From Escherichia coli (GTDB taxonomy: Bacteria > Pseudomonadota > Gammaproteobacteria > Enterobacterales > Enterobacteriaceae), in the NCBI RefSeq assembly GCF_003334355.1, contig NZ_QOWP01000005.1: a stretch of 64,000 nucleotides of DNA; one strand, written 5' to 3'. Of this stretch, positions 2,232 through 20,300 are shown piece by piece. The notes below the pieces were generated by a model that saw only the letters and a program-made list of their open reading frames with translations, did not search any database and was not told the origin of the DNA. The number at the start of each line of letters is the position of its first letter. Position 1 is the first letter of the stretch. A program made the position numbers and the translations under genes.

Positions 2232-3086
2232 ATGGCACTGCCAGTGAACAAACGCGTTCTCAAAATTCTGTTTATTCTCTTTGTTGTTGCCTTCTGCGTT
2301 TATTTAGTGCCGCGCGTTGCCATCAACTTCTTCTATTATCCCGACGATAAAATTTACGGTCCCGATCCCTGGTCGGCGGAATCCGTCGAATTTACGGCTA
2401 AGGACGGTACTCGTCTGCAAGGCTGGTTTATCCCTTCTTCGACGGGCCCTGCTGACAACGCCATCGCAACCATCATTCATGCTCACGGCAATGCCGGAAA
2501 TATGTCCGCCCACTGGCCGCTGGTCAGTTGGTTACCCGAGCGTAATTTCAACGTTTTTATGTTTGATTATCGCGGGTTTGGTAAATCAAAAGGCACGCCG
2601 TCCCAGGCCGGATTGCTGGACGATACGCAAAGCGCCATCAATGTGGTGCGCCATCGCAGTGATGTAAACCCACAACGGCTGGTGCTGTTCGGGCAGAGTA
2701 TTGGCGGGGCGAATATTCTTGCTGTTATTGGTCAGGGTGATCGTGAAGGCATACGTGCGGTGATCCTCGACTCCACATTTGCCTCTTATGCAACCATCGC
2801 CAACCAGATGATCCCCGGCAGTGGCTACTTACTTGATGAGAGTTACAGCGGCGAAAATTACATCGCCAGCGTCAGCCCGATCCCGCTTTTACTCATTCAC
2901 GGTAAAGCCGATCAGGTTATCCCATGGCAGCACAGCGAAAAGTTGTATAGCCTGGCAAAAGAGCCAAAACGGTTGATCCTAATCCCGGATGGCGAACACA
3001 TTGATGCTTTTTCCGATCGTCACGGCGATGTTTATCGCGAACAGATGGTGGACTTTATCCTTAGCGCGTTGAATCCGCAGAACTAA
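2232..3086 (+). CDS. yfhR: Alpha/beta-hydrolase family protein YfhR (alternative upstream ATG at 2205)
   Basis: ORF 2205-3086; N-terminal membrane anchor and GQSIGG serine-hydrolase motif; start placed at MALPVNK to give the 284-aa form. Confidence 0.8.
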   Translation: MALPVNKRVLKILFILFVVAFCVYLVPRVAINFFYYPDDKIYGPDPWSAESVEFTAKDGTRLQGWFIPSSTGPADNAIATIIHAHGNAGNMSAHWPLVSWLPERNFNVFMFDYRGFGKSKGTPSQAGLLDDTQSAINVVRHRSDVNPQRLVLFGQSIGGANILAVIGQGDREGIRAVILDSTFASYATIANQMIPGSGYLLDESYSGENYIASVSPIPLLLIHGKADQVIPWQHSEKLYSLAKEPKRLILIPDGEHIDAFSDRHGDVYREQMVDFILSALNPQN

Positions 3087-4557: not shown

Positions 4558-5688
4558 GGGAACAACTTTCGGGCGCAAAAACATTGCCGGCAGCGCCACC
4601 AGCGCCATTACCCAGAACACGCCGTGGCCCAGATATTGATACAGGAAACCGGCGAAAACGGTCATGATAGCGATACTGCCGCCCATCGCGACGGCAGAGT
4701 AAACCGCCTGTAAACGGATGACTTCGCTACCCTGGCGAGCAGCAATATAACGCATGGCGGCCAGGTGGCAGACCGTGAAGGTGCCGCAATGCAGAATTTG
4801 CACCACTATCAACCACGGCAACGCCGTAGTTGCTCCCATAATGCCCCAGCGCACTACGCCGCAAATCGCCGAGATCAACAGCATATCGCGTGCACTACAA
4901 CGGCGGAAAAGTTTATTACTCAGCGCAAAGATAATGACTTCCGCCACCACGCCCAGCGACCACAAATACCCCACCGCCGAGGCCGAGTAGCCAGCTGCCT
5001 GCCAGTAAATGGCGCTAAAACCGTAATAGGCCGCATGTGCCCCCTGCAATAAACAAACGCAGGCCAGAAAGCGCCAGTTCTGGCGAACCAGCGCCAACCA
5101 CGCTGACCAACCGGTGCTCTCCTGCTGGCGGCTTGCCCCTTGTGGCTGAATCGTCGGACGGATGAGAAAGCCGAGCAGCATGGATGCCACGCCCAACGTC
5201 AACAGCGCGAGGATCACCCGATAATCAAACATAGTGACCAGTTTGCCCGTCAGCGCCGAGCCAATGACAAACGCCACCGAGCCCCACAGTCGCACTTTGC
5301 CGTAATCAAGCGGGAACTGCTTTTGCCACGTATTCGCCAGTGCATCGGTCAACGGTACCAGCGGTGAGAAAAAGAGGTTAAAGCCAATCATCACCAGCAT
5401 CAGCCACGCTACGTGCGCCCCCGCCCAGAAGGCGACAGCAAAGAGAAGTGTCAGCAGTGCCAGCACGCGCAAGGCGAAAATCAGGCGGGAAGGATCGCTG
5501 ACGCGGGGCGCGATGAGCAAACTCCCGAGAAAACGGGCAACCAGACCTGCCCCCAATAACAGGCCGATGGTTTCTGGCGTTAAACCAATCCCTTTAAGCC
5601 AGACGCTCCAGAAAGGTAGAAAAATGCCGTAACTAAAAAAGTATGTGAAATAGCCGAGCGCCAACCAGCGCGTGGATTGCAAAACCAT
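4549..5688 (-). CDS. hcaT: MFS transporter HcaT (putative 3-phenylpropionate transporter)
   Basis: 379-aa hydrophobic multi-pass ORF next to the hca operon. Confidence 0.85.
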   Translation of the reverse strand: MVLQSTRWLALGYFTYFFSYGIFLPFWSVWLKGIGLTPETIGLLLGAGLVARFLGSLLIAPRVSDPSRLIFALRVLALLTLLFAVAFWAGAHVAWLMLVMIGFNLFFSPLVPLTDALANTWQKQFPLDYGKVRLWGSVAFVIGSALTGKLVTMFDYRVILALLTLGVASMLLGFLIRPTIQPQGASRQQESTGWSAWLALVRQNWRFLACVCLLQGAHAAYYGFSAIYWQAAGYSASAVGYLWSLGVVAEVIIFALSNKLFRRCSARDMLLISAICGVVRWGIMGATTALPWLIVVQILHCGTFTVCHLAAMRYIAARQGSEVIRLQAVYSAVAMGGSIAIMTVFAGFLYQYLGHGVFWVMALVALPAMFLRPKVVPSC

Positions 5689-11616: not shown

Positions 11617-11650
11617 TGCCGGATGCGGCGTGAACGCCTTATCCGGCATT
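11617..11650. repeat. REP palindromic unit between yphA and yphB
   Basis: gatgccggatgcggcgtgaacgccttatccggcatt, same family as the REP units at 242-422. Confidence 0.8.
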
Positions 11651-11657
11651 TAATAAA

Positions 11658-12530
11658 TTACAGCCACTCTACCCGCAACGACATCTCTGAAGTTGTTGAT
11701 TCCCCTGGTGCTAGCGCAATGAGATCACCCCCTTCCGGGCGATGATGATCATCCGGCGCATGGCTCATCGGTTCCAGACAGAAGAAATCAAACGCATATC
11801 CTTTATCAAACGCAGGGTCGGAAACAAAGATGAAATAACACGGTGCAGGTGGCGTCGTTTCCATGATGATGGCATAACCTTCCTGCGGCTGCTCGATGCG
11901 GGCCTGACCATTCCATCCGGCAAAACCATTGTTCACCCACTGGCGCGGCAACGGCGCGGGCTGGTTAAAATCCAGTTCCTGCGGTAGCTGCTCGCAAAAC
12001 TCACCCGCCAGCCACTGCTCCCGCTCCAGCCAGTAACCGCTCGCCTGTGCCTGAATCCGCGTTTGCGGCGACAACGGAAAATAAGGATGCCAGCCGGTAC
12101 CAAATGGCAGCGTCTCTGCCCCTTGATTGGTGACAGAGAGCGTCACCGTCAGCGTATCCGCCGTTAAATGAAACGCCTGACTTACCCGATAGTGATAGAC
12201 ACCGCTGCGATGTTCATACACCAGACACAAACTATCATCGCTGTGCGAGACACATTGCCACTCGCCCAGCCAGCCATCGCCGTGTAGATAGTGCGCATCC
12301 CACTCAACATTCGGTTGCAGTTGATACTCACGCCCCTGCCAGACAAAACGATTGCCGCTCACCCGGTTTGCAAATGGCACCAGCGGAAAACATGAGGCAT
12401 CGGTTGCCACACCGCTTTTTTTACCAGGACGTAAGAGCGGCGTCGTATCGCGCCAGAAGCCTTCGATTACGCCGCCCTGGTCAGAAACGTCCAGCTTTAG
12501 CGACCCGTGGGATAAGGTATAGATGGTCAT
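11658..12530 (-). CDS. yphB: Aldose 1-epimerase family protein YphB
   Basis: 290-aa ORF MTIYTLSHGSLKLDVSDQGGVIEGFWRD... Confidence 0.85.
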   Translation of the reverse strand: MTIYTLSHGSLKLDVSDQGGVIEGFWRDTTPLLRPGKKSGVATDASCFPLVPFANRVSGNRFVWQGREYQLQPNVEWDAHYLHGDGWLGEWQCVSHSDDSLCLVYEHRSGVYHYRVSQAFHLTADTLTVTLSVTNQGAETLPFGTGWHPYFPLSPQTRIQAQASGYWLEREQWLAGEFCEQLPQELDFNQPAPLPRQWVNNGFAGWNGQARIEQPQEGYAIIMETTPPAPCYFIFVSDPAFDKGYAFDFFCLEPMSHAPDDHHRPEGGDLIALAPGESTTSEMSLRVEWL

Positions 12531-12541
12531 CCGCTAACTCC

Positions 12542-13603
12542 TTAATCCGGGAAGTTAATCACAACTTTCCCGCATTTGCCGCTCGCCATCAGCGCATAGG
12601 CATCACCTGCCTGTTCCAGCGAGAAGCGATGGGTAATGGCGTTACGCGGCCACAGCTTCCAGTCCGTCAGATCATGGGCGCATTTTTCCATATGGAACAG
12701 ACTGGTCACCCAGGAGCCGATAATCCGCCGTTGATGGTGCATCAGATCGGCGCTGACCTCGAATTCCACTTCTCCGGTTTCACCAATGTAAACCACCCGT
12801 CCCCAGTCAGCGGTGGATTGCAGTGCCAGCAAGCGACCTGCGGCATTACCGGAACAATCGAGCGCAACATCCGCGCCACCGTGGGTGAGTTCGGCGATAA
12901 TCTGCGGCAGACCTTCGGTGGTTGCTAAATAGCCGTGATCCATCACCCCTAACTGTTTTGCCATCGCCAGACGTTCCGGCAGCATATCAACGCCGATGAT
13001 CCGTTTTGCACCGCGACCTTTCGCCAGCATCATCGCCATCATGCCGACCGGCCCCAGACCGACCACCAGCACGTTATCGCTGCCGGAAACTTCGCCGCGC
13101 AAAATCCCTTCATAGGCCGTGCCAACGCCGCAACTGATAAACGCACCATCTTCGTAGCTCAGCGCATCCGGCAGGAGGATCAGATCTTTTTCTTCCGCCA
13201 GCAGATATTCGGCATGACCGCCGTCACGCTGCCAGCCGTAAGCCGCTTTTCCTTTGCCAGTACAAGAGATAGGAAAGCCGCGGCGGCAGTTCGGGCAAAA
13301 ACCACAGCCAGAAATGTGATACACCAGCACGCGGTCGCCCTCTTTAAAATGGCGGCAGCCTTGCCCCATCGCCACAATCTGCCCGCACGGTTCATGACCG
13401 TTGATAAATCCTTGGTATAACGGTTTGTCGGGTGCCGCTGCCGTAGCGCGGTGCTGGTGGTAGATATAGTGGACATCGCTTCCGCAAATTCCGGAAGATT
13501 TCATTTTGATCAGTACCTGGTTAATCCCTGGTGTCGGCACCGCAACTTCCCGTAGATCGACGGTCGAATTTCCTGGTAAATAAGCTGCCAGCATCGTTTT
13601 CAT
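12542..13603 (-). CDS. yphC: Zinc-dependent alcohol/sugar dehydrogenase YphC
   Basis: ORF 12542-13636; MDR-family motifs GHEPCG and GLGPVG; start placed at MKTMLAAYLPG for a 353-aa product. Confidence 0.85.
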   Translation of the reverse strand: MKTMLAAYLPGNSTVDLREVAVPTPGINQVLIKMKSSGICGSDVHYIYHQHRATAAAPDKPLYQGFINGHEPCGQIVAMGQGCRHFKEGDRVLVYHISGCGFCPNCRRGFPISCTGKGKAAYGWQRDGGHAEYLLAEEKDLILLPDALSYEDGAFISCGVGTAYEGILRGEVSGSDNVLVVGLGPVGMMAMMLAKGRGAKRIIGVDMLPERLAMAKQLGVMDHGYLATTEGLPQIIAELTHGGADVALDCSGNAAGRLLALQSTADWGRVVYIGETGEVEFEVSADLMHHQRRIIGSWVTSLFHMEKCAHDLTDWKLWPRNAITHRFSLEQAGDAYALMASGKCGKVVINFPD

Positions 13604-13668
13604 AAATCCCTCATTAACAATACGATTAATTTTCATCCCTGCCGCACCCGCGCCAGGGGCGTTAAGGT

Positions 13669-14667
13669 TTAGCGTTTCGCTTTACTGCTTCGCTGGGTCA
13701 GCAAGATATTCGCCAGCACCGCCACCACGATGATGACGCCGCGTACCACCTGCTGGAAAAAGGAGTTAATACCGAGCAGCACCAGACCGTTACCGATTAG
13801 CGTAATCACCAGCACACCAAGCAATGTACCGAACAGGGAACCGCGACCGCCGGAAAGTGCCGTACCGCCGACCACGACCGCGGCGATGACGTCAAACTCC
13901 AGACCGTTTGCGGCACCTGCGTTACCAGAACCGAGGCGCGCCGCCAACAAAATGCCGGTCACCGCCGCTAATAATCCCGAAAGGGTAAAGATAAGAATGC
14001 GCACCCGACGAACGTTGATGCCGCACAACTGCGCCGCCGTAGCATTACCGCCAACGGCAAAAACCGAGCGCCCGAAGGCGGTTTTGCGGCTGATGAACAC
14101 AAACAGCGCAAACAACACAATCATGATCAGCGCGGATACCGGCACACCGAGAAATTGTCCGCCCAGCCAGTCCAGCACCTCGTTTTCGTCAATCGGCACT
14201 GGCAGGGCGTTCGTCATAAACAGCCCCATTCAGCGCAGGGCGCTCCACAGCCCCAGTGTGGCAACGAAACTTGGTACGTTAAACACGCCGCGCAGCACCC
14301 CGGCGAGCGTTCCCATCAGCGCGCCTAACAGCAACACCAGCAGACAAGCAATCGCCAACGGAACTTCAAATTGCAGCAAAAATGCCAGGCACACCGAGAC
14401 AAAAGCCACCATCGGCCCAACGCTGACATCAATCTCACCGGAGATAATAATCAGCGTCATCGCCCAGGCGGCAATCCCAATGGTGGCGGCATCGCGCAGC
14501 ACGTTCATCTGGTTATTCAATGAGATAAAGCCAGGCGCGTTCAGGGAGAAGACCAGATAAAGAATGGCAATCACCACCAGCAAACCGATCTCATTAATAT
14601 GGCGACTGACAAATTGTTTGAGCGAGACGCTCTTGCCCTGCGGCAATGGTAATGACGAAGCAGACAT
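13669..14667 (-). pseudogene. yphD: ABC transporter permease YphD, interrupted by an in-frame TGA at 14230-14232 followed directly by ATG
   Basis: Two abutting same-frame ORFs (14230-14667, 145 aa; 13669-14229, 186 aa); minus strand reads ...CTG CGC TGA ATG GGG CTG...; 145+1+186 = 332 codons, the length I recall for intact YphD. Confidence 0.7.
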
Positions 14668-14691
14668 CTTCAGGTTCCTCGGTAAAATTCA

Positions 14692-16203
14692 TCAGTGCAC
14701 AGACAGAATGGCGGACATCAGCTCATCCACATTGACCGGCGAGTGAAACTCCTGCGAGAACGTGCCGTGCTGTAATAACAGGATGCGGTCACACACCAGC
14801 GGCAACTCCTCCACTTCACTGGAGATAAACACCACGCTTTTTCCTTCGGCAGCCAGCTCACGGACAATACGGTAAATCTGCTGTTTGGCTTCGATATCGA
14901 CGCCGCGCGTTGGCTCGTCGAGCAACAAAATCTGGCTGGCGGCATAGACCCAACGACCGATCACTACTTTTTGCTGATTGCCGCCAGAAAGCGTGCCGAT
15001 GGGCGTTTCGCTACTGGCGGCCTTGACCGTCATCCGCTGCATCACTTCTTCGGTCAGGCGGCGGATGGTGGACCATTGCAGCACTCCGTTGGCGCTGATT
15101 TTTTGCCGATTGGTCAGCACTGTATTTTCGTCAACGCCCAACCAGGGAATGATCCCCGCTTCTTTGCGGTTTTCTGGCGTATAGCCAATGCCGCGTTTCA
15201 GCATGTCGCCGTAATCGGGGCGCGTGATTTTCTCGCCGTTGATAACAATTTCGCCCTGTTCATACTCCTCCAGCCCAACAATCGCCTTCAGCAATTCACT
15301 GCGCCCTGCCCCCAGCAGACCAGCAATGCCGAGCACTTCGCCACGACGTAGCGTAAAACTGATATCCTCCAGCTTGGGCTTATGGCGTAACGCACGGACT
15401 TCCAGTACGGCCTGATCCACAATTTCCTGAGGGGCAACCGGCGCAATATCAACGTGATCGCGCCCGAGCATCAGCGACACAATATGATGCGTGGAGGTGT
15501 TTTCGAGCATCACATCGCCCGCCACCTGACCATCGCGCATAACGGTGGCACAGGAGGCAATGCGGCGAATTTCTTCCATCCGGTGGCTGACATAAATTAC
15601 CGCCACGCCCAGTGCCGACATCTTTTTCACCGCGCTGATCACCAGTTCAACTTCCGCACTGGCAAGCGAACTGGTAGGTTCATCAAGAATGACCACGCGC
15701 GGCTCGCCCTTCATCACCCGCGCAATTTCCACCAGCTGCTTTTGCGCCGGGCTTAGTGTTGAAACAAGTTGTTCAGGACTAACGTCAACGCCCAACGCCT
15801 GTAAGCAACGTTGGGCATCCTGCGCCATTTGCAGGTAATCAATCATGCCGTTGCGGCGGGGCCACTGACCGAGGCAGAAGTTTTCCGCCACCGTCAGCCC
15901 TTCCACCAGACTTAACTCCTGATAAACCGCGCGTACCCCCAGTTCAGCGGCACGGCGAGTCAGCGTAGCTTCGTCGCCTTCCAGTCGCGTCTCGCCAATC
16001 CAGATATCACCGCTATCCGGACGTTCGCTACCGGTAAGCATTCGAATGAGGGTCGATTTGCCCGCGCCGTTTTTGCCTAACAGCGCACGAACTTCGCCTT
16101 TATTGAGCGTGAAGTTAACGTTATCCAACGCAACGACGCCGGGATAACGCTTATTTCCTGCCACCACTTTTGCTACCGGGACTGCCTCTGTTGCCGTGAA
16201 CAT
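14692..16203 (-). CDS. yphE: Sugar ABC transporter ATP-binding protein YphE (tandem ATPase domains)
   Basis: 503-aa ORF with two Walker A motifs (GKNGAGKST and a second cassette) and an LSGGNQQK signature. Confidence 0.88.
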   Translation of the reverse strand: MFTATEAVPVAKVVAGNKRYPGVVALDNVNFTLNKGEVRALLGKNGAGKSTLIRMLTGSERPDSGDIWIGETRLEGDEATLTRRAAELGVRAVYQELSLVEGLTVAENFCLGQWPRRNGMIDYLQMAQDAQRCLQALGVDVSPEQLVSTLSPAQKQLVEIARVMKGEPRVVILDEPTSSLASAEVELVISAVKKMSALGVAVIYVSHRMEEIRRIASCATVMRDGQVAGDVMLENTSTHHIVSLMLGRDHVDIAPVAPQEIVDQAVLEVRALRHKPKLEDISFTLRRGEVLGIAGLLGAGRSELLKAIVGLEEYEQGEIVINGEKITRPDYGDMLKRGIGYTPENRKEAGIIPWLGVDENTVLTNRQKISANGVLQWSTIRRLTEEVMQRMTVKAASSETPIGTLSGGNQQKVVIGRWVYAASQILLLDEPTRGVDIEAKQQIYRIVRELAAEGKSVVFISSEVEELPLVCDRILLLQHGTFSQEFHSPVNVDELMSAILSVH

Positions 16204-16225
16204 AGGGACCTCTGCGAATCAGCGA

Positions 16226-17209
16226 TTAGGGCAGACCATCAACGTGCGTTGCCAGCCACTGTTTACCGTCTTCCGTTTTGGTATAGAGATCGATAGGCAC
16301 CTGAATCACTTTTTCACCGTCGGCTTGTTTATTGATAACCTTCAATGTTTGCGCGAAAACAGCATTGCCCATTTTCTTACCGGAAATATCCACTACCGCT
16401 TTCAGCACCTGATTGTTTTCCAGCTCCTGAGCAATTTCGGTTGTCATATCCGAACCGAAAACAGCAATTTTTCCGGCCTGATTTTGATTACGTACCGCTT
16501 TTACCGCGCCGAGTGTCGCACCGCCCGATTCCCCCATAATGGCGTTGAGATCCGGCGTGGAGATAATCAGTTTTTCACCAACGGAAATCGCTTTATCTAA
16601 AACAGTCCCTTCCTGATTAGCGACAATTTGCGCGCCGGGAACGCGGGCTTTTAATACTTCTTCAAACCCTTTACGTCGTTGCACACAAACTTCAAAGGCT
16701 TCGCAATTGATGACGGCAATTTTCGGCTGGTCAATTTTATTGGCAATAAAATAATCGGCGGCAGCGTTACCCAGTTTTTTACCAAATTCCAGTGGATCGC
16801 CGACCAGATACGCCGAGACATATTTATCGACACCCTTTTGATTAATACAGGTGTTGTAGCAAATCACCGGAATACCCGCTTCACTGGCGCGACGAACGGT
16901 ACGGCTACTGCCATTTTCAGACACTGCCGATAAAATAATGGCATCGACATTACGCGCCACGAGGGTATCAACAAAGGTACTTTCTTTCGAAATATCACCC
17001 TGGGCGTTAGTTTCAATTAACTGTACCTGTACTGAAGAATCTTTTGCCGCATCCTGAACGCCCTGACGCACTCCAGCGTAATATCCCTGGGTATCAAGGT
17101 ATATTGCACCAATGGTCATTTCTTTATCCGCAGCCCTGGCAAATAGTGCGCTACCTAATAGCGTAGCCATTAATAATAGATTACGGGTTGTTCTCATTTT
17201 TTTAGGCAT
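16226..17209 (-). CDS. yphF: Periplasmic sugar-binding protein YphF of ABC transporter
   Basis: 327-aa ORF with N-terminal signal peptide MPKKMRTTRNLLLMATLLGSALFARA. Confidence 0.85.
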   Translation of the reverse strand: MPKKMRTTRNLLLMATLLGSALFARAADKEMTIGAIYLDTQGYYAGVRQGVQDAAKDSSVQVQLIETNAQGDISKESTFVDTLVARNVDAIILSAVSENGSSRTVRRASEAGIPVICYNTCINQKGVDKYVSAYLVGDPLEFGKKLGNAAADYFIANKIDQPKIAVINCEAFEVCVQRRKGFEEVLKARVPGAQIVANQEGTVLDKAISVGEKLIISTPDLNAIMGESGGATLGAVKAVRNQNQAGKIAVFGSDMTTEIAQELENNQVLKAVVDISGKKMGNAVFAQTLKVINKQADGEKVIQVPIDLYTKTEDGKQWLATHVDGLP

Positions 17210-17305
17210 AGTACCTCCTGTAGGGTTTTTATTAACAACGGCTTATTCTAATTATTTTGTGATGAGCGGCAGCGCATGCCGCTCAAATATTACAGTTAAT
17301 AGGGT

Positions 17306-20300
17306 TTAGTGAACGTAGTTAAAAATAAAAGGCATCACGGTGGTGAATAATGCCGCTTTCGGCCAGGCCGGATTAATCGCCGTCAATTCAGCGCGAGCAG
17401 ATTCATATTGCGCAACCTCCCCGAGTCCCGCGGACGCCAGCATCGCCACCATCAGGCATTTTTCTTTATGCTGCTGTTGTAAATCGCCATACAGCGACAA
17501 CAGGTCAGGTTGTGAAACAGCAAAGAAATCCGCCTCAATACTGGTTTTCGCCATCTCTTGCGCCCACTGTTTCATTTCACTAAACAGTTGCTGTGCGGTT
17601 TGCTGTTCACCCAGCAGTCGCAGCGCCATTCCTTGCCAGAAGAGATAATCAACCGGCTGATCGTTGTAATAACTGTGGATGTTAATGGTGCGATCGCCGG
17701 TCGCCGCCAGACGTAAACAACGCATCGCTTCAGTTTCATCGCCCTGCGCGTTGGCGCATATCGCCTGCCAGAACCAGATGTCGTTATCAGTTTGCCCCGG
17801 TAAACGGCCTTCGCTTAAATTCTCCGGATAATGCAGCGCGGCATGAAGCAGTTCGCTGGCCTGCTGCGGCTCTCTGGCATCAAGATGCTGCCAGGCGCGT
17901 AATAACTGGTTGAGGATAAACTGACTGGTGACCTTCCCTTCCCCGCCTTCCCACGGGTGGAATTTACGCGTGGCGAGAATGTCCGCCGCTTTGTCTGCCT
18001 GACCCGTGAGATGCCACAAATTGAGCAGTTCTGCGGTCATGTCGTCGCGTTTCAGCGCAATTTCCTGATTATTTTCCAGACGCGCCAGTCGTTTCTCCGG
18101 TGTGGCTCCACTTAACTTATCAAGCAAATCCCGTTCGAAAAGCAGACGTGCATCCTGCGGCGCAAGCTGATAAGCATTATCAAGATAACGCGCGGCCAGC
18201 TCATAATCGTGTTGCTTATTCCACGCATGGATCGCTAACCCGCGCCAGCCGTCGGCAAACTCCGGCGACATCTCTACGCAACGTTGCCATAAGGCAATGG
18301 CTTTGTTGTAGCTACGTTTGTTATAGTAGAAGCAGGCCAGTAAATGGCGAGCAAACCAGCACTCTTCAATACTCTCCAGCGCCGCCACTTCTTCCAGCGT
18401 ATTCGGGAAACGGACAAACTGCGGGAAGACATCAATGGCTTTTGCGACCAGTTCGCCACGTTCGGCTTTCGGCAGCAAGCTGGCTTGCAGGTAAAGCGGC
18501 AGCGTGCGCTGGCAGTCCAGTGCGTTCAGCATCTCTGCCGCCAGGGTGGGCATTCCCCAGTTAATCAGTTGCCCGGCGGTCATCAGAGCGTTAACGTCGC
18601 GTCCCTGACACAGACCGCGCCACTGCGCGAGGGCTGATTCGCTACGACCATCGAACCAGTTCAGCCACCACAGAGTGGCGTTCAGCGGATAATCGCGCAG
18701 CAGTTTCTCGCGCTGCAAACGCGCGTTGTCCTGACGACCACTTAACACCAGCAGCAGGTTATGCAGGCAAAGCACTTCCTGATTGGTTGGGCAGGCGCGA
18801 AGACTTTGTTGGCAAAAATCCAGACCCGCATCGAAGTTACCATTACGCGCAGCCAGTCGTGCCAGGCCATAATAGCCACCGGCTTTGCTGTTGCCGCTCC
18901 AGACCGCCCGCCAGAAATCCTCTTCGGCTTGTTGATATTGTCCCTGACGTTCGTAAGCACTGGCGCGAATCAAACTCGCCTGTCCGCACTGCGGATTTTT
19001 GTTCAGCGCATGTGCGCGTTTCAGAGCCTGAGTGGCATACGCCACCGCTTGCGGGAAATCGGCACGGTTATATTCCAGCATCGCCAGCGCCAGGTTACAG
19101 CGGTAATCCAGCGGATCCAGCGCCACGCCGCGTAGGTAGTAATCGAACGGTGAACGGCTGGCGTGATGATATTGCTCCAGATGCTGACCGATAAACCAGG
19201 CTTCATCTGTACTGGTAATGTCTTGTGCTGCCAGTGGCGCTTTGGCGACGTCCGGCAACGGCAACTCTTGCGGCTGATGTTCCTGATAACTCAGTACAAT
19301 ATTGCCGTCGGCATCGGAGAGCTCAATGGTCAGCCTTTCAGGATTGATACCGTGCAACACGCCCTGGATGGCGGTCGCAGGCATCAGTGCCACGGCATCA
19401 TCAAGTAACGCGTTGCATTTGCCGATTTCGCGGATCGCCAGGCGGTATCCGTTCAACGGAGAGATGGCATACAGCCCCCACTCAATCCCCCGCTCACTAC
19501 GCTGGAGTTTTATCACCGCATCGCGGGAGGCATTTTGCACCATGCCCAAAGAATGATAAGGCAGGAAATACTGCTCAAAACGCTTCTCTTCGTAAGCATC
19601 AAGCCAGGTAAAATCAGGCTGGTTATCGGCAAAAATACCGGTCATCAGTTCGATATACGGGCCGTTATTGTCGGTCAGACTCTTATCCCACGCCTGGCCA
19701 AATTCACTGTGTCCCCAGCTCCACTGCTTTTTACCTGGCGCAATATGGTGGTTGGCAACGTGTAGCAAACCACCATCTTCATCGTGACACCACGCGCCAA
19801 CAAAATCGTACTGTGATTTTTCAGCCATATATGAGGTTGGAACGGGCACATTTTTATAGCGAGAAATGTCCACTCCAGCGGAGTAGTCCACTTTGTAGTA
19901 AGTGCCGGTGGCGATGGGGAAAGCGGAGACGGCCCGTTTGCCGTGATCAAACACCGCAGTCACATCCGGCGGGAAAACGCTCTGATGCCCTTCCCCCCCT
20001 TTCACTGCCGGGTTGGCCCACCACAAGAAATGACGCGGCGTGGCGTTGCCGTTATAGACGCGGCTGGCGATTTCCAGCGCCGCCCGGTCAGGGCGCAGGG
20101 TGAAACCTGTCATCACCTGTAAACCATGCATCGGCTCCGTTTCGCCGACCCACACCGTCTGTGCGCCGTCTTCATGGGCTTCGAGGGTGAAATCAACGGG
20201 CATAAAGGTGGTCGGGCGATGGTGTTGCGGCCAGTTAAACTCAATCCCGCCAGAGATCCACGGTCCCAGCAGCCCCACCAGCGCAGGTTTAATGACTTCA

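Follow-up and report, generated by a model that had tools for sequence, protein, structure and literature searches.

The closest described systems to YphD are the RbsC/AraH-type permeases of CUT2 sugar ABC importers. Like YphD, these permeases have a PF02653 domain, and they are encoded in an operon along with a Peripla_BP_4 protein and a double ABC ATPase. YphD differs from them in that it scores below all of the equivalog cut-offs, and the copy that we discuss here is also truncated. Together, yphF, yphE, and yphD make up a CUT2-type sugar importer, which has been little studied and is non-essential, and yphC and yphB come next. A yphD deletion strain of BW25113 is viable and shows reduced starvation-induced antibiotic tolerance (PMC8597633).

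As for the lesion itself, the nearest parallels are the single-lesion nonsense pseudogenes among the accessory genes of Escherichia coli and Shigella. In these, a syntenic and otherwise intact gene has one in-frame stop where relatives have a sense codon, and under laboratory conditions the cell can do without the gene. All of this applies to the yphD that we studied, and nothing material sets it apart; the next codon just happens to encode methionine. Because of that methionine, other systems should also be considered. A stop codon that lies next to an in-frame AUG could let the terminating ribosome restart, as in the classical restarts of lacI and of T4 rIIB, and in yphD too an in-frame AUG adjoins the stop. 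However, the junctions of natural coupled gene pairs are conserved, whereas the junction in yphD is a rare allele (in 0 of 5,375 complete genomes) and does not have a well-placed Shine-Dalgarno sequence. Another parallel is the split lactose permease, where, as one might imagine for yphD, two halves of a polytopic transporter could assemble. Work from the Kaback laboratory in the 1990s reportedly found that lactose permeases split in a loop will complement and that those split within a helix will not. The functional splits are in loops, while the break in yphD is in a predicted transmembrane helix and at an invariant glycine.

The DNA that we analyzed is a stretch of 64,000 nucleotides (the window). 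Read directly from the minus strand, its yphD contains ...GGG CTG TGG AGC GCC CTG CGC TGA ATG GGG CTG TTT ATG ACG... An earlier note on this DNA had placed an in-frame TGA followed by ATG within 14221-14240, and that is where both of them lie (Table 1). The open reading frames on the two sides of the stop are in one frame, and together with the stop they add up to the length that the note had given for intact YphD (145+1+186 = 332). In four strains (HS, WCHEC020031, OW1E2, and AR_0369), the intact gene is annotated as 999 nt encoding an "ABC transporter permease" of 332 amino acids (WP_001276663.1), with yphE and yphC on its two sides. The note had also guessed that the wild-type codon was GGA (Gly), and this is indeed codon 146 in the reference alleles. 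Within yphD, the window differs from those reference genomes at two bases, 14232 and 14206. If YphD from AR_0369 is compared to the window with tblastn, residues 1-332 align at 99.7% identity, with one stop, at codon 146. The lesion is a single G:C>T:A transversion that converts GGA to TGA. No chance test applies, as the sequence itself directly shows the in-frame stop in this conserved gene.

Table 1. Features of the yph region, in coordinates of the window
Feature	Position	Strand	Remarks
yphB, aldose 1-epimerase, intact	11658-12530	-	downstream of yphD
yphC, zinc alcohol dehydrogenase family, intact	12542-13636	-	downstream of yphD
Whole yphD frame, 332 codons, BPD_transp_2 / RbsC-AraH-type permease; very probably a pseudogene here	13669..14667	-	one internal stop; tblastn; Pfam
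C-terminal fragment ORF, 186 aa, starts MGLFMT... at Met147 and runs to the native stop	13669..14229	-	matches RbsC profile positions 156-317
Synonymous change GCA>GCC at Ala154; polymorphic in other haplotypes	14206	-	second difference from the nearest complete genomes
ATG right after the stop, native Met147 codon; possible restart site	14227..14229	-	wild-type alleles read RGMGLF
Premature stop TGA, codon 146; wild type is GGA (Gly)	14230..14232	-	G>T on the coding strand, or C>A at 14232 on the + strand
N-terminal fragment ORF, 145 aa plus premature stop, ends ...GLWSALR	14230..14667	-	matches RbsC profile positions 11-135 (of 321)
GGAG, sole Shine-Dalgarno-like motif 5' of ATG147	14243..14246	-	13 nt before the A of ATG
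yphE, fused double ATPase of the importer, intact, 503 aa	14692..16203	-	two ABC_tran domains
yphF, periplasmic binding protein of the importer, intact, 327 aa	16226..17209	-	Peripla_BP_4 domain

We think that yphD is very probably a nonsense pseudogene in this strain and that the importer is inactivated by it. This was one of the options in the earlier note, and it is the one that we favor: in relatives this is a sense codon, and the protein's single domain is cut at an invariant glycine. More generally, a premature in-frame stop in a gene that is otherwise collinear with its intact orthologs, together with a sense codon at that position (here, 146) in relatives, is what identifies a pseudogene. 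We regard the lesion in yphD as having produced an ordinary pseudogene and not a new type of split gene.

We first consider the protein. When the intact sequence is reconstructed, YphD matches PF02653 (BPD_transp_2) at residues 55-316 with E = 1.7e-36. This covers positions 4-268 of the 269 in the model, so it is a significant match to the whole domain, which places YphD in this family. YphD also matches the profiles of RbsC and AraH from end to end but scores below their curated cut-offs; for the RbsC equivalog (NCBIfam NF007067), it scores 226.6 bits against a cut-off of 398. Its identity to RbsC, AraH, and YtfT is 33-37%. Because YphD is below the cut-off of every named equivalog, we consider it to be a paralog and not RbsC.

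Residues R145 and G146 are invariant in nine orthologs of YphD (from Budvicia, Entomohabitans, Serratia, and others, at 78-89% identity) and in RbsC, AraH, and YtfT from E. coli. A search by sequence for a solved structure of a relative of YphD found none at E ≤ 0.001, and we used an AlphaFold model in its place. The model was made from the alignment and has a mean pLDDT of 84.8 (above 90 around the site) and a pTM of 0.82. It places residue 146 inside a helix (133-152), which means that the stop cuts the sole PF02653 domain at an invariant glycine within a predicted helix. Judging from the alignment and the model, the truncation would remove parts of YphD that are needed for its function, and we infer that this function is lost.

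The TGA allele of yphD is rare and lineage-specific. The yphD region is present in 5,405 of 5,426 complete genomes of E. coli; the best matches have two mismatches, and none of the 5,405 matches the window's yphD region at 100%. A 61-nt probe centered on the stop is exact in none of the 3,097 genomes that it matched. A 34-mer with TGA is exact in none of the 5,375 complete E. coli genomes matched, while the 34-mer with GGA is exact in 4,820 of the 5,377 complete genomes that have the site. (There were 4,821 genomes with one-mismatch matches to the TGA probe as opposed to 4,820 exact matches to GGA, which points to one genome with some other variant in the 34-mer. We checked if this genome might be of the L144Q+TGA type that is described below, and it is not.) We also scanned contigs from metagenomes, with N at the variable base, and all 98 of the contigs returned have G (i.e., GGA). 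The earlier note had proposed a comparison to reference alleles, on the grounds that functional copies of yphD with TGA would speak against a lesion. None of the complete genomes has a functional annotated yphD with TGA, so the pseudogene reading survives this comparison.

Is the T at 14232 (on the coding strand) real? Comparisons of assemblies give good evidence that it is real in this lineage. A Logan contig that was built from public reads (ERR4578542_127, 10.4 kb, with the same contig in 6 samples) is 100% identical to the window's 11618-18667. These 7,050 nt include both the TGA and the GCC, and the contig is unbroken at the site. Furthermore, the fragment proteins of 145 and 186 amino acids both occur verbatim in a large protein collection. 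Because this six-sample contig was assembled independently and is identical across the site, an error in base calling is unlikely. The earlier note had raised this concern, i.e., that the strain truly has GGA and that the T is a miscall, and it is not hard to see why one might worry. Confusion of G and T is a typical type of Illumina error, the allele is in no complete genome, the two differences in yphD from the nearest genomes (G>T and A>C) are only 26 nt apart, and a small inverted repeat overlaps the site. Nevertheless, the six-sample contig has both changes and does not break, which argues against a mixed signal, and the TGA is also found in unrelated projects, on a second haplotype that is represented in several draft assemblies. 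The site of the A>C change is an ordinary polymorphism elsewhere. And although contig ends do pile up at this codon, they occur at every offset and are an artifact of the search. Given all this, we consider a sequencing or assembly error to be improbable.

The A>C change at 14206 strengthens a small hairpin in the predicted RNA fold. We considered whether it might be part of a multi-base event or be a compensatory change in the hairpin, and we rejected this idea: other haplotypes commonly have GCC at this codon, and the fold is not significant.

It had also been suggested that the lesion was engineered, with the stop codon put in deliberately to give a laboratory construct. A clean single-base nonsense change is what one would expect to see in such a construct. 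But the background is like that of a wild type: relative to its best match, the window has 30 scattered changes in 25 kb, and ordinary SNPs separate it from all of the complete genomes. The isolates most closely related to it are environmental, animal, and clinical. The window contains no scar, no cassette, and no second engineered change, and the same allele is shared by several public samples and also by wild assemblies. We find it exceedingly hard to believe that this lesion was made in a laboratory.

By looking up the 186-amino-acid product, we found the identical GGA>TGA change at four more loci: L005 (from a metagenome), L007 (GCA_049980845.1), L011 (GCA_049980425.1), and L012 (GCA_015731305.1). 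These four loci have a yphD haplotype that is not the window's; within yphD, the two are different at about 10 sites. At 14278 and 14188, the window has the bases of haplotype I, and at 14206 it differs from haplotype II. Since the window's own haplotype is retained to either side of the stop, an independent mutation is more likely than a transfer. We also considered that the window might have acquired its TGA from haplotype II by short-patch recombination, and we rejected this, as the tract would have to be less than about 26 bp. It appears from these haplotypes that codon 146 was hit at least twice independently, and selection could explain this. We caution that a look-up with the 186-residue product will find only those lesions that cause gene callers to start at Met147, so recurrence at this spot is biased upward.

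Some of these loci have other changes as well. In L012, at around 2990-3000, the TGA is accompanied by CTG>CAG (L144Q), two codons 5' of the stop. In L007 and L011, yphB is split into ORFs of 105 and 162 amino acids (4700-5572). The same 186-amino-acid ORF has also been called in public assemblies with varied upstream lesions. L006, L008, L009, L013, and L126 have +1 or -1 frameshifts at around codons 125-146 of yphD, no more than about 60 nt 5' of codon 147, and many public contigs have a form of yphD with 129+186 amino acids. As for the contigs that end at codons 145-146, this is because an exact-length look-up of partial products selects them. We rejected the ideas of a hotspot for insertion sequences, an IS insertion of Shigella sonnei, or a site of systematic sequencing error at codon 145/146 where assemblies would break: the ends have offsets of +0 to +5 nt and involve at least six haplotypes. 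In strain HS, IS1A is directly upstream of yphF, where other strains have yphG (L001, 1-1525). The yphF of HS is annotated as being shorter (945 nt instead of 984 nt); here, too, the yph cluster has been hit independently. The yph sugar-utilization cluster shows recurrent decay in natural E. coli, and the window is one more example.

One point against our reading of yphD as a pseudogene is that UGA followed directly by AUG is the layout that most favors reinitiation, so the C-terminal fragment may well be made. But the ATG was not created by the lesion. It is the native Met147, within the wild-type R-G-M-G-L-F. At this position, close orthologs have Met, and others, along with RbsC, AraH, and YtfT, have Leu or Val. 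UGA and AUG adjoin, as they can at the junction of a coupled split gene, but the only GGAG is 13 nt upstream. This spacing is too far for efficient independent initiation in E. coli.

Could yphD nevertheless function as a split gene, as the earlier note had offered as its other option? This would require that translation terminate at UGA and restart at AUG147, that the pieces of 145 and 186 amino acids assemble, and that the importer then work. Besides the juxtaposition of UGA and AUG, which favors termination followed by reinitiation, it could be argued that both fragments still match the permease profile, that yphE, yphF, yphC, yphB, and yphG are all intact, and that the same TGA is found on two haplotypes. 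The recurrence, however, is just what an exact search with 186 residues would select for, one of the TGA lineages also has a broken yphB, and the allele is absent from the complete genomes. The native origin of Met147 and the location of the sole Shine-Dalgarno-like GGAG weaken the idea further. So does the location of the break, which is at the invariant glycine of a family-wide R-G motif and in a predicted helix instead of a loop; within-helix breaks of lactose permease reportedly fail to complement. Finally, the split is not conserved: YphD orthologs at 78-99% identity are single ORFs of 326-335 amino acids, and no ortholog or paralog that we retrieved is split here. We view a functional split gene as very unlikely. 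We are even more doubtful about the more specific proposal that the TGA allele is a selected two-piece permease, with UGA146-AUG147 coupling, retained or altered function, and an origin on two haplotypes that is due to selection.

Another way to obtain a functional protein would be recoding, in which UGA146 is read as selenocysteine or is efficiently read through to give the full-length protein. Of the stop codons in E. coli, UGA is the leakiest, and there is a modest hairpin just downstream. Yet 13500-14900 has no match to SECIS or to any other family in Rfam (E ≤ 1), and the local RNA fold near the stop is not significantly more stable than those of shuffled sequences (z = -1.88). Also, the ancestral codon encodes Gly and not Cys or Sec, and background read-through, at about 1% or less, would put Trp at the invariant glycine. 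We see virtually no chance that UGA146 is recoded. A consensus scan for internal promoters or terminators gave site counts no higher than those for shuffled sequence.

We also looked for such lesions elsewhere in the window. For this, we mapped the annotated CDSs of AR_0369, which is the nearest complete genome, onto the window, with glnB and the cut iscR left out. Of the 57 proteins, 56 align from end to end without an internal stop, and the only stop is the one in yphD. In particular, yphB, yphC, yphE, yphF, yphG, and yphH are intact. The earlier note had asserted that all of the other genes in the window are full length, and for these 56 CDSs that is correct. The nearest genomes have lesions of their own. 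In OW1E2, yfhR is frameshifted (L003, 2232-3085), and in AR_0369, yfiE has an internal stop (L024, 10821-11702); both genes are intact in the window. Single-lesion pseudogenes are commonplace, as the two nearest complete genomes have one each in the same 64 kb.

We noticed two other things at the ends of the window. First, in the gap between iscR and trmJ (around 283-375), the window has an extra 91-bp palindromic unit of the REP/BIME type (TGTCGGATGCGGCGTGAACGCC... / GCCTGATAAGACGCATTACGCGTCGCATCAGGC) relative to AR_0369, while OW1E2 has the same copy number of REP/BIME in this gap as the window does. This difference is ordinary copy-number variation in a REP array. Extra copies of REP/BIME are also why there are many extra matches per genome to the window. 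Second, collinearity with AR_0369, in which rrf is just beyond kgtP, predicts a 5S rRNA gene that is cut by the end of the window (63929-64000).

What would this lesion do to the cell? Ribosomes would stop after Arg145 and release a fragment of 145 residues that would lack about two thirds of the single BPD_transp_2 domain. YphD is the only membrane subunit of YphDEF, with YphF as the binding protein and YphE as the double ATPase, and the permease is presumably a homodimer, as in RbsC. Because yphD is the sole permease gene of the system, we predict that the YphDEF importer is most likely inactive in this strain. A restart at Met147 may, at some level, yield the C-terminal piece of 186 residues, and a trace amount of G146W protein could arise if tRNA-Trp rarely reads through the UGA. 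We do not expect either of these to restore transport. In other words, it is plausible that the 186-residue restart product is made, but it is unlikely to be useful, and a working two-piece permease is unlikely. It is also possible that the stop exerts polarity on yphC and yphB.

The operon is otherwise intact, i.e., decay has not spread, which fits with a recent lesion, although it is still compatible with a retained function. Greater interest would attach to the locus only if both pieces proved to form an active transporter. Some public records annotate the ORFs of 145 and 186 amino acids as separate permease genes, which should be avoided. Instead, annotation of this strain should mark yphD as a pseudogene with an internal stop and treat the YphDEF importer as probably inactive.
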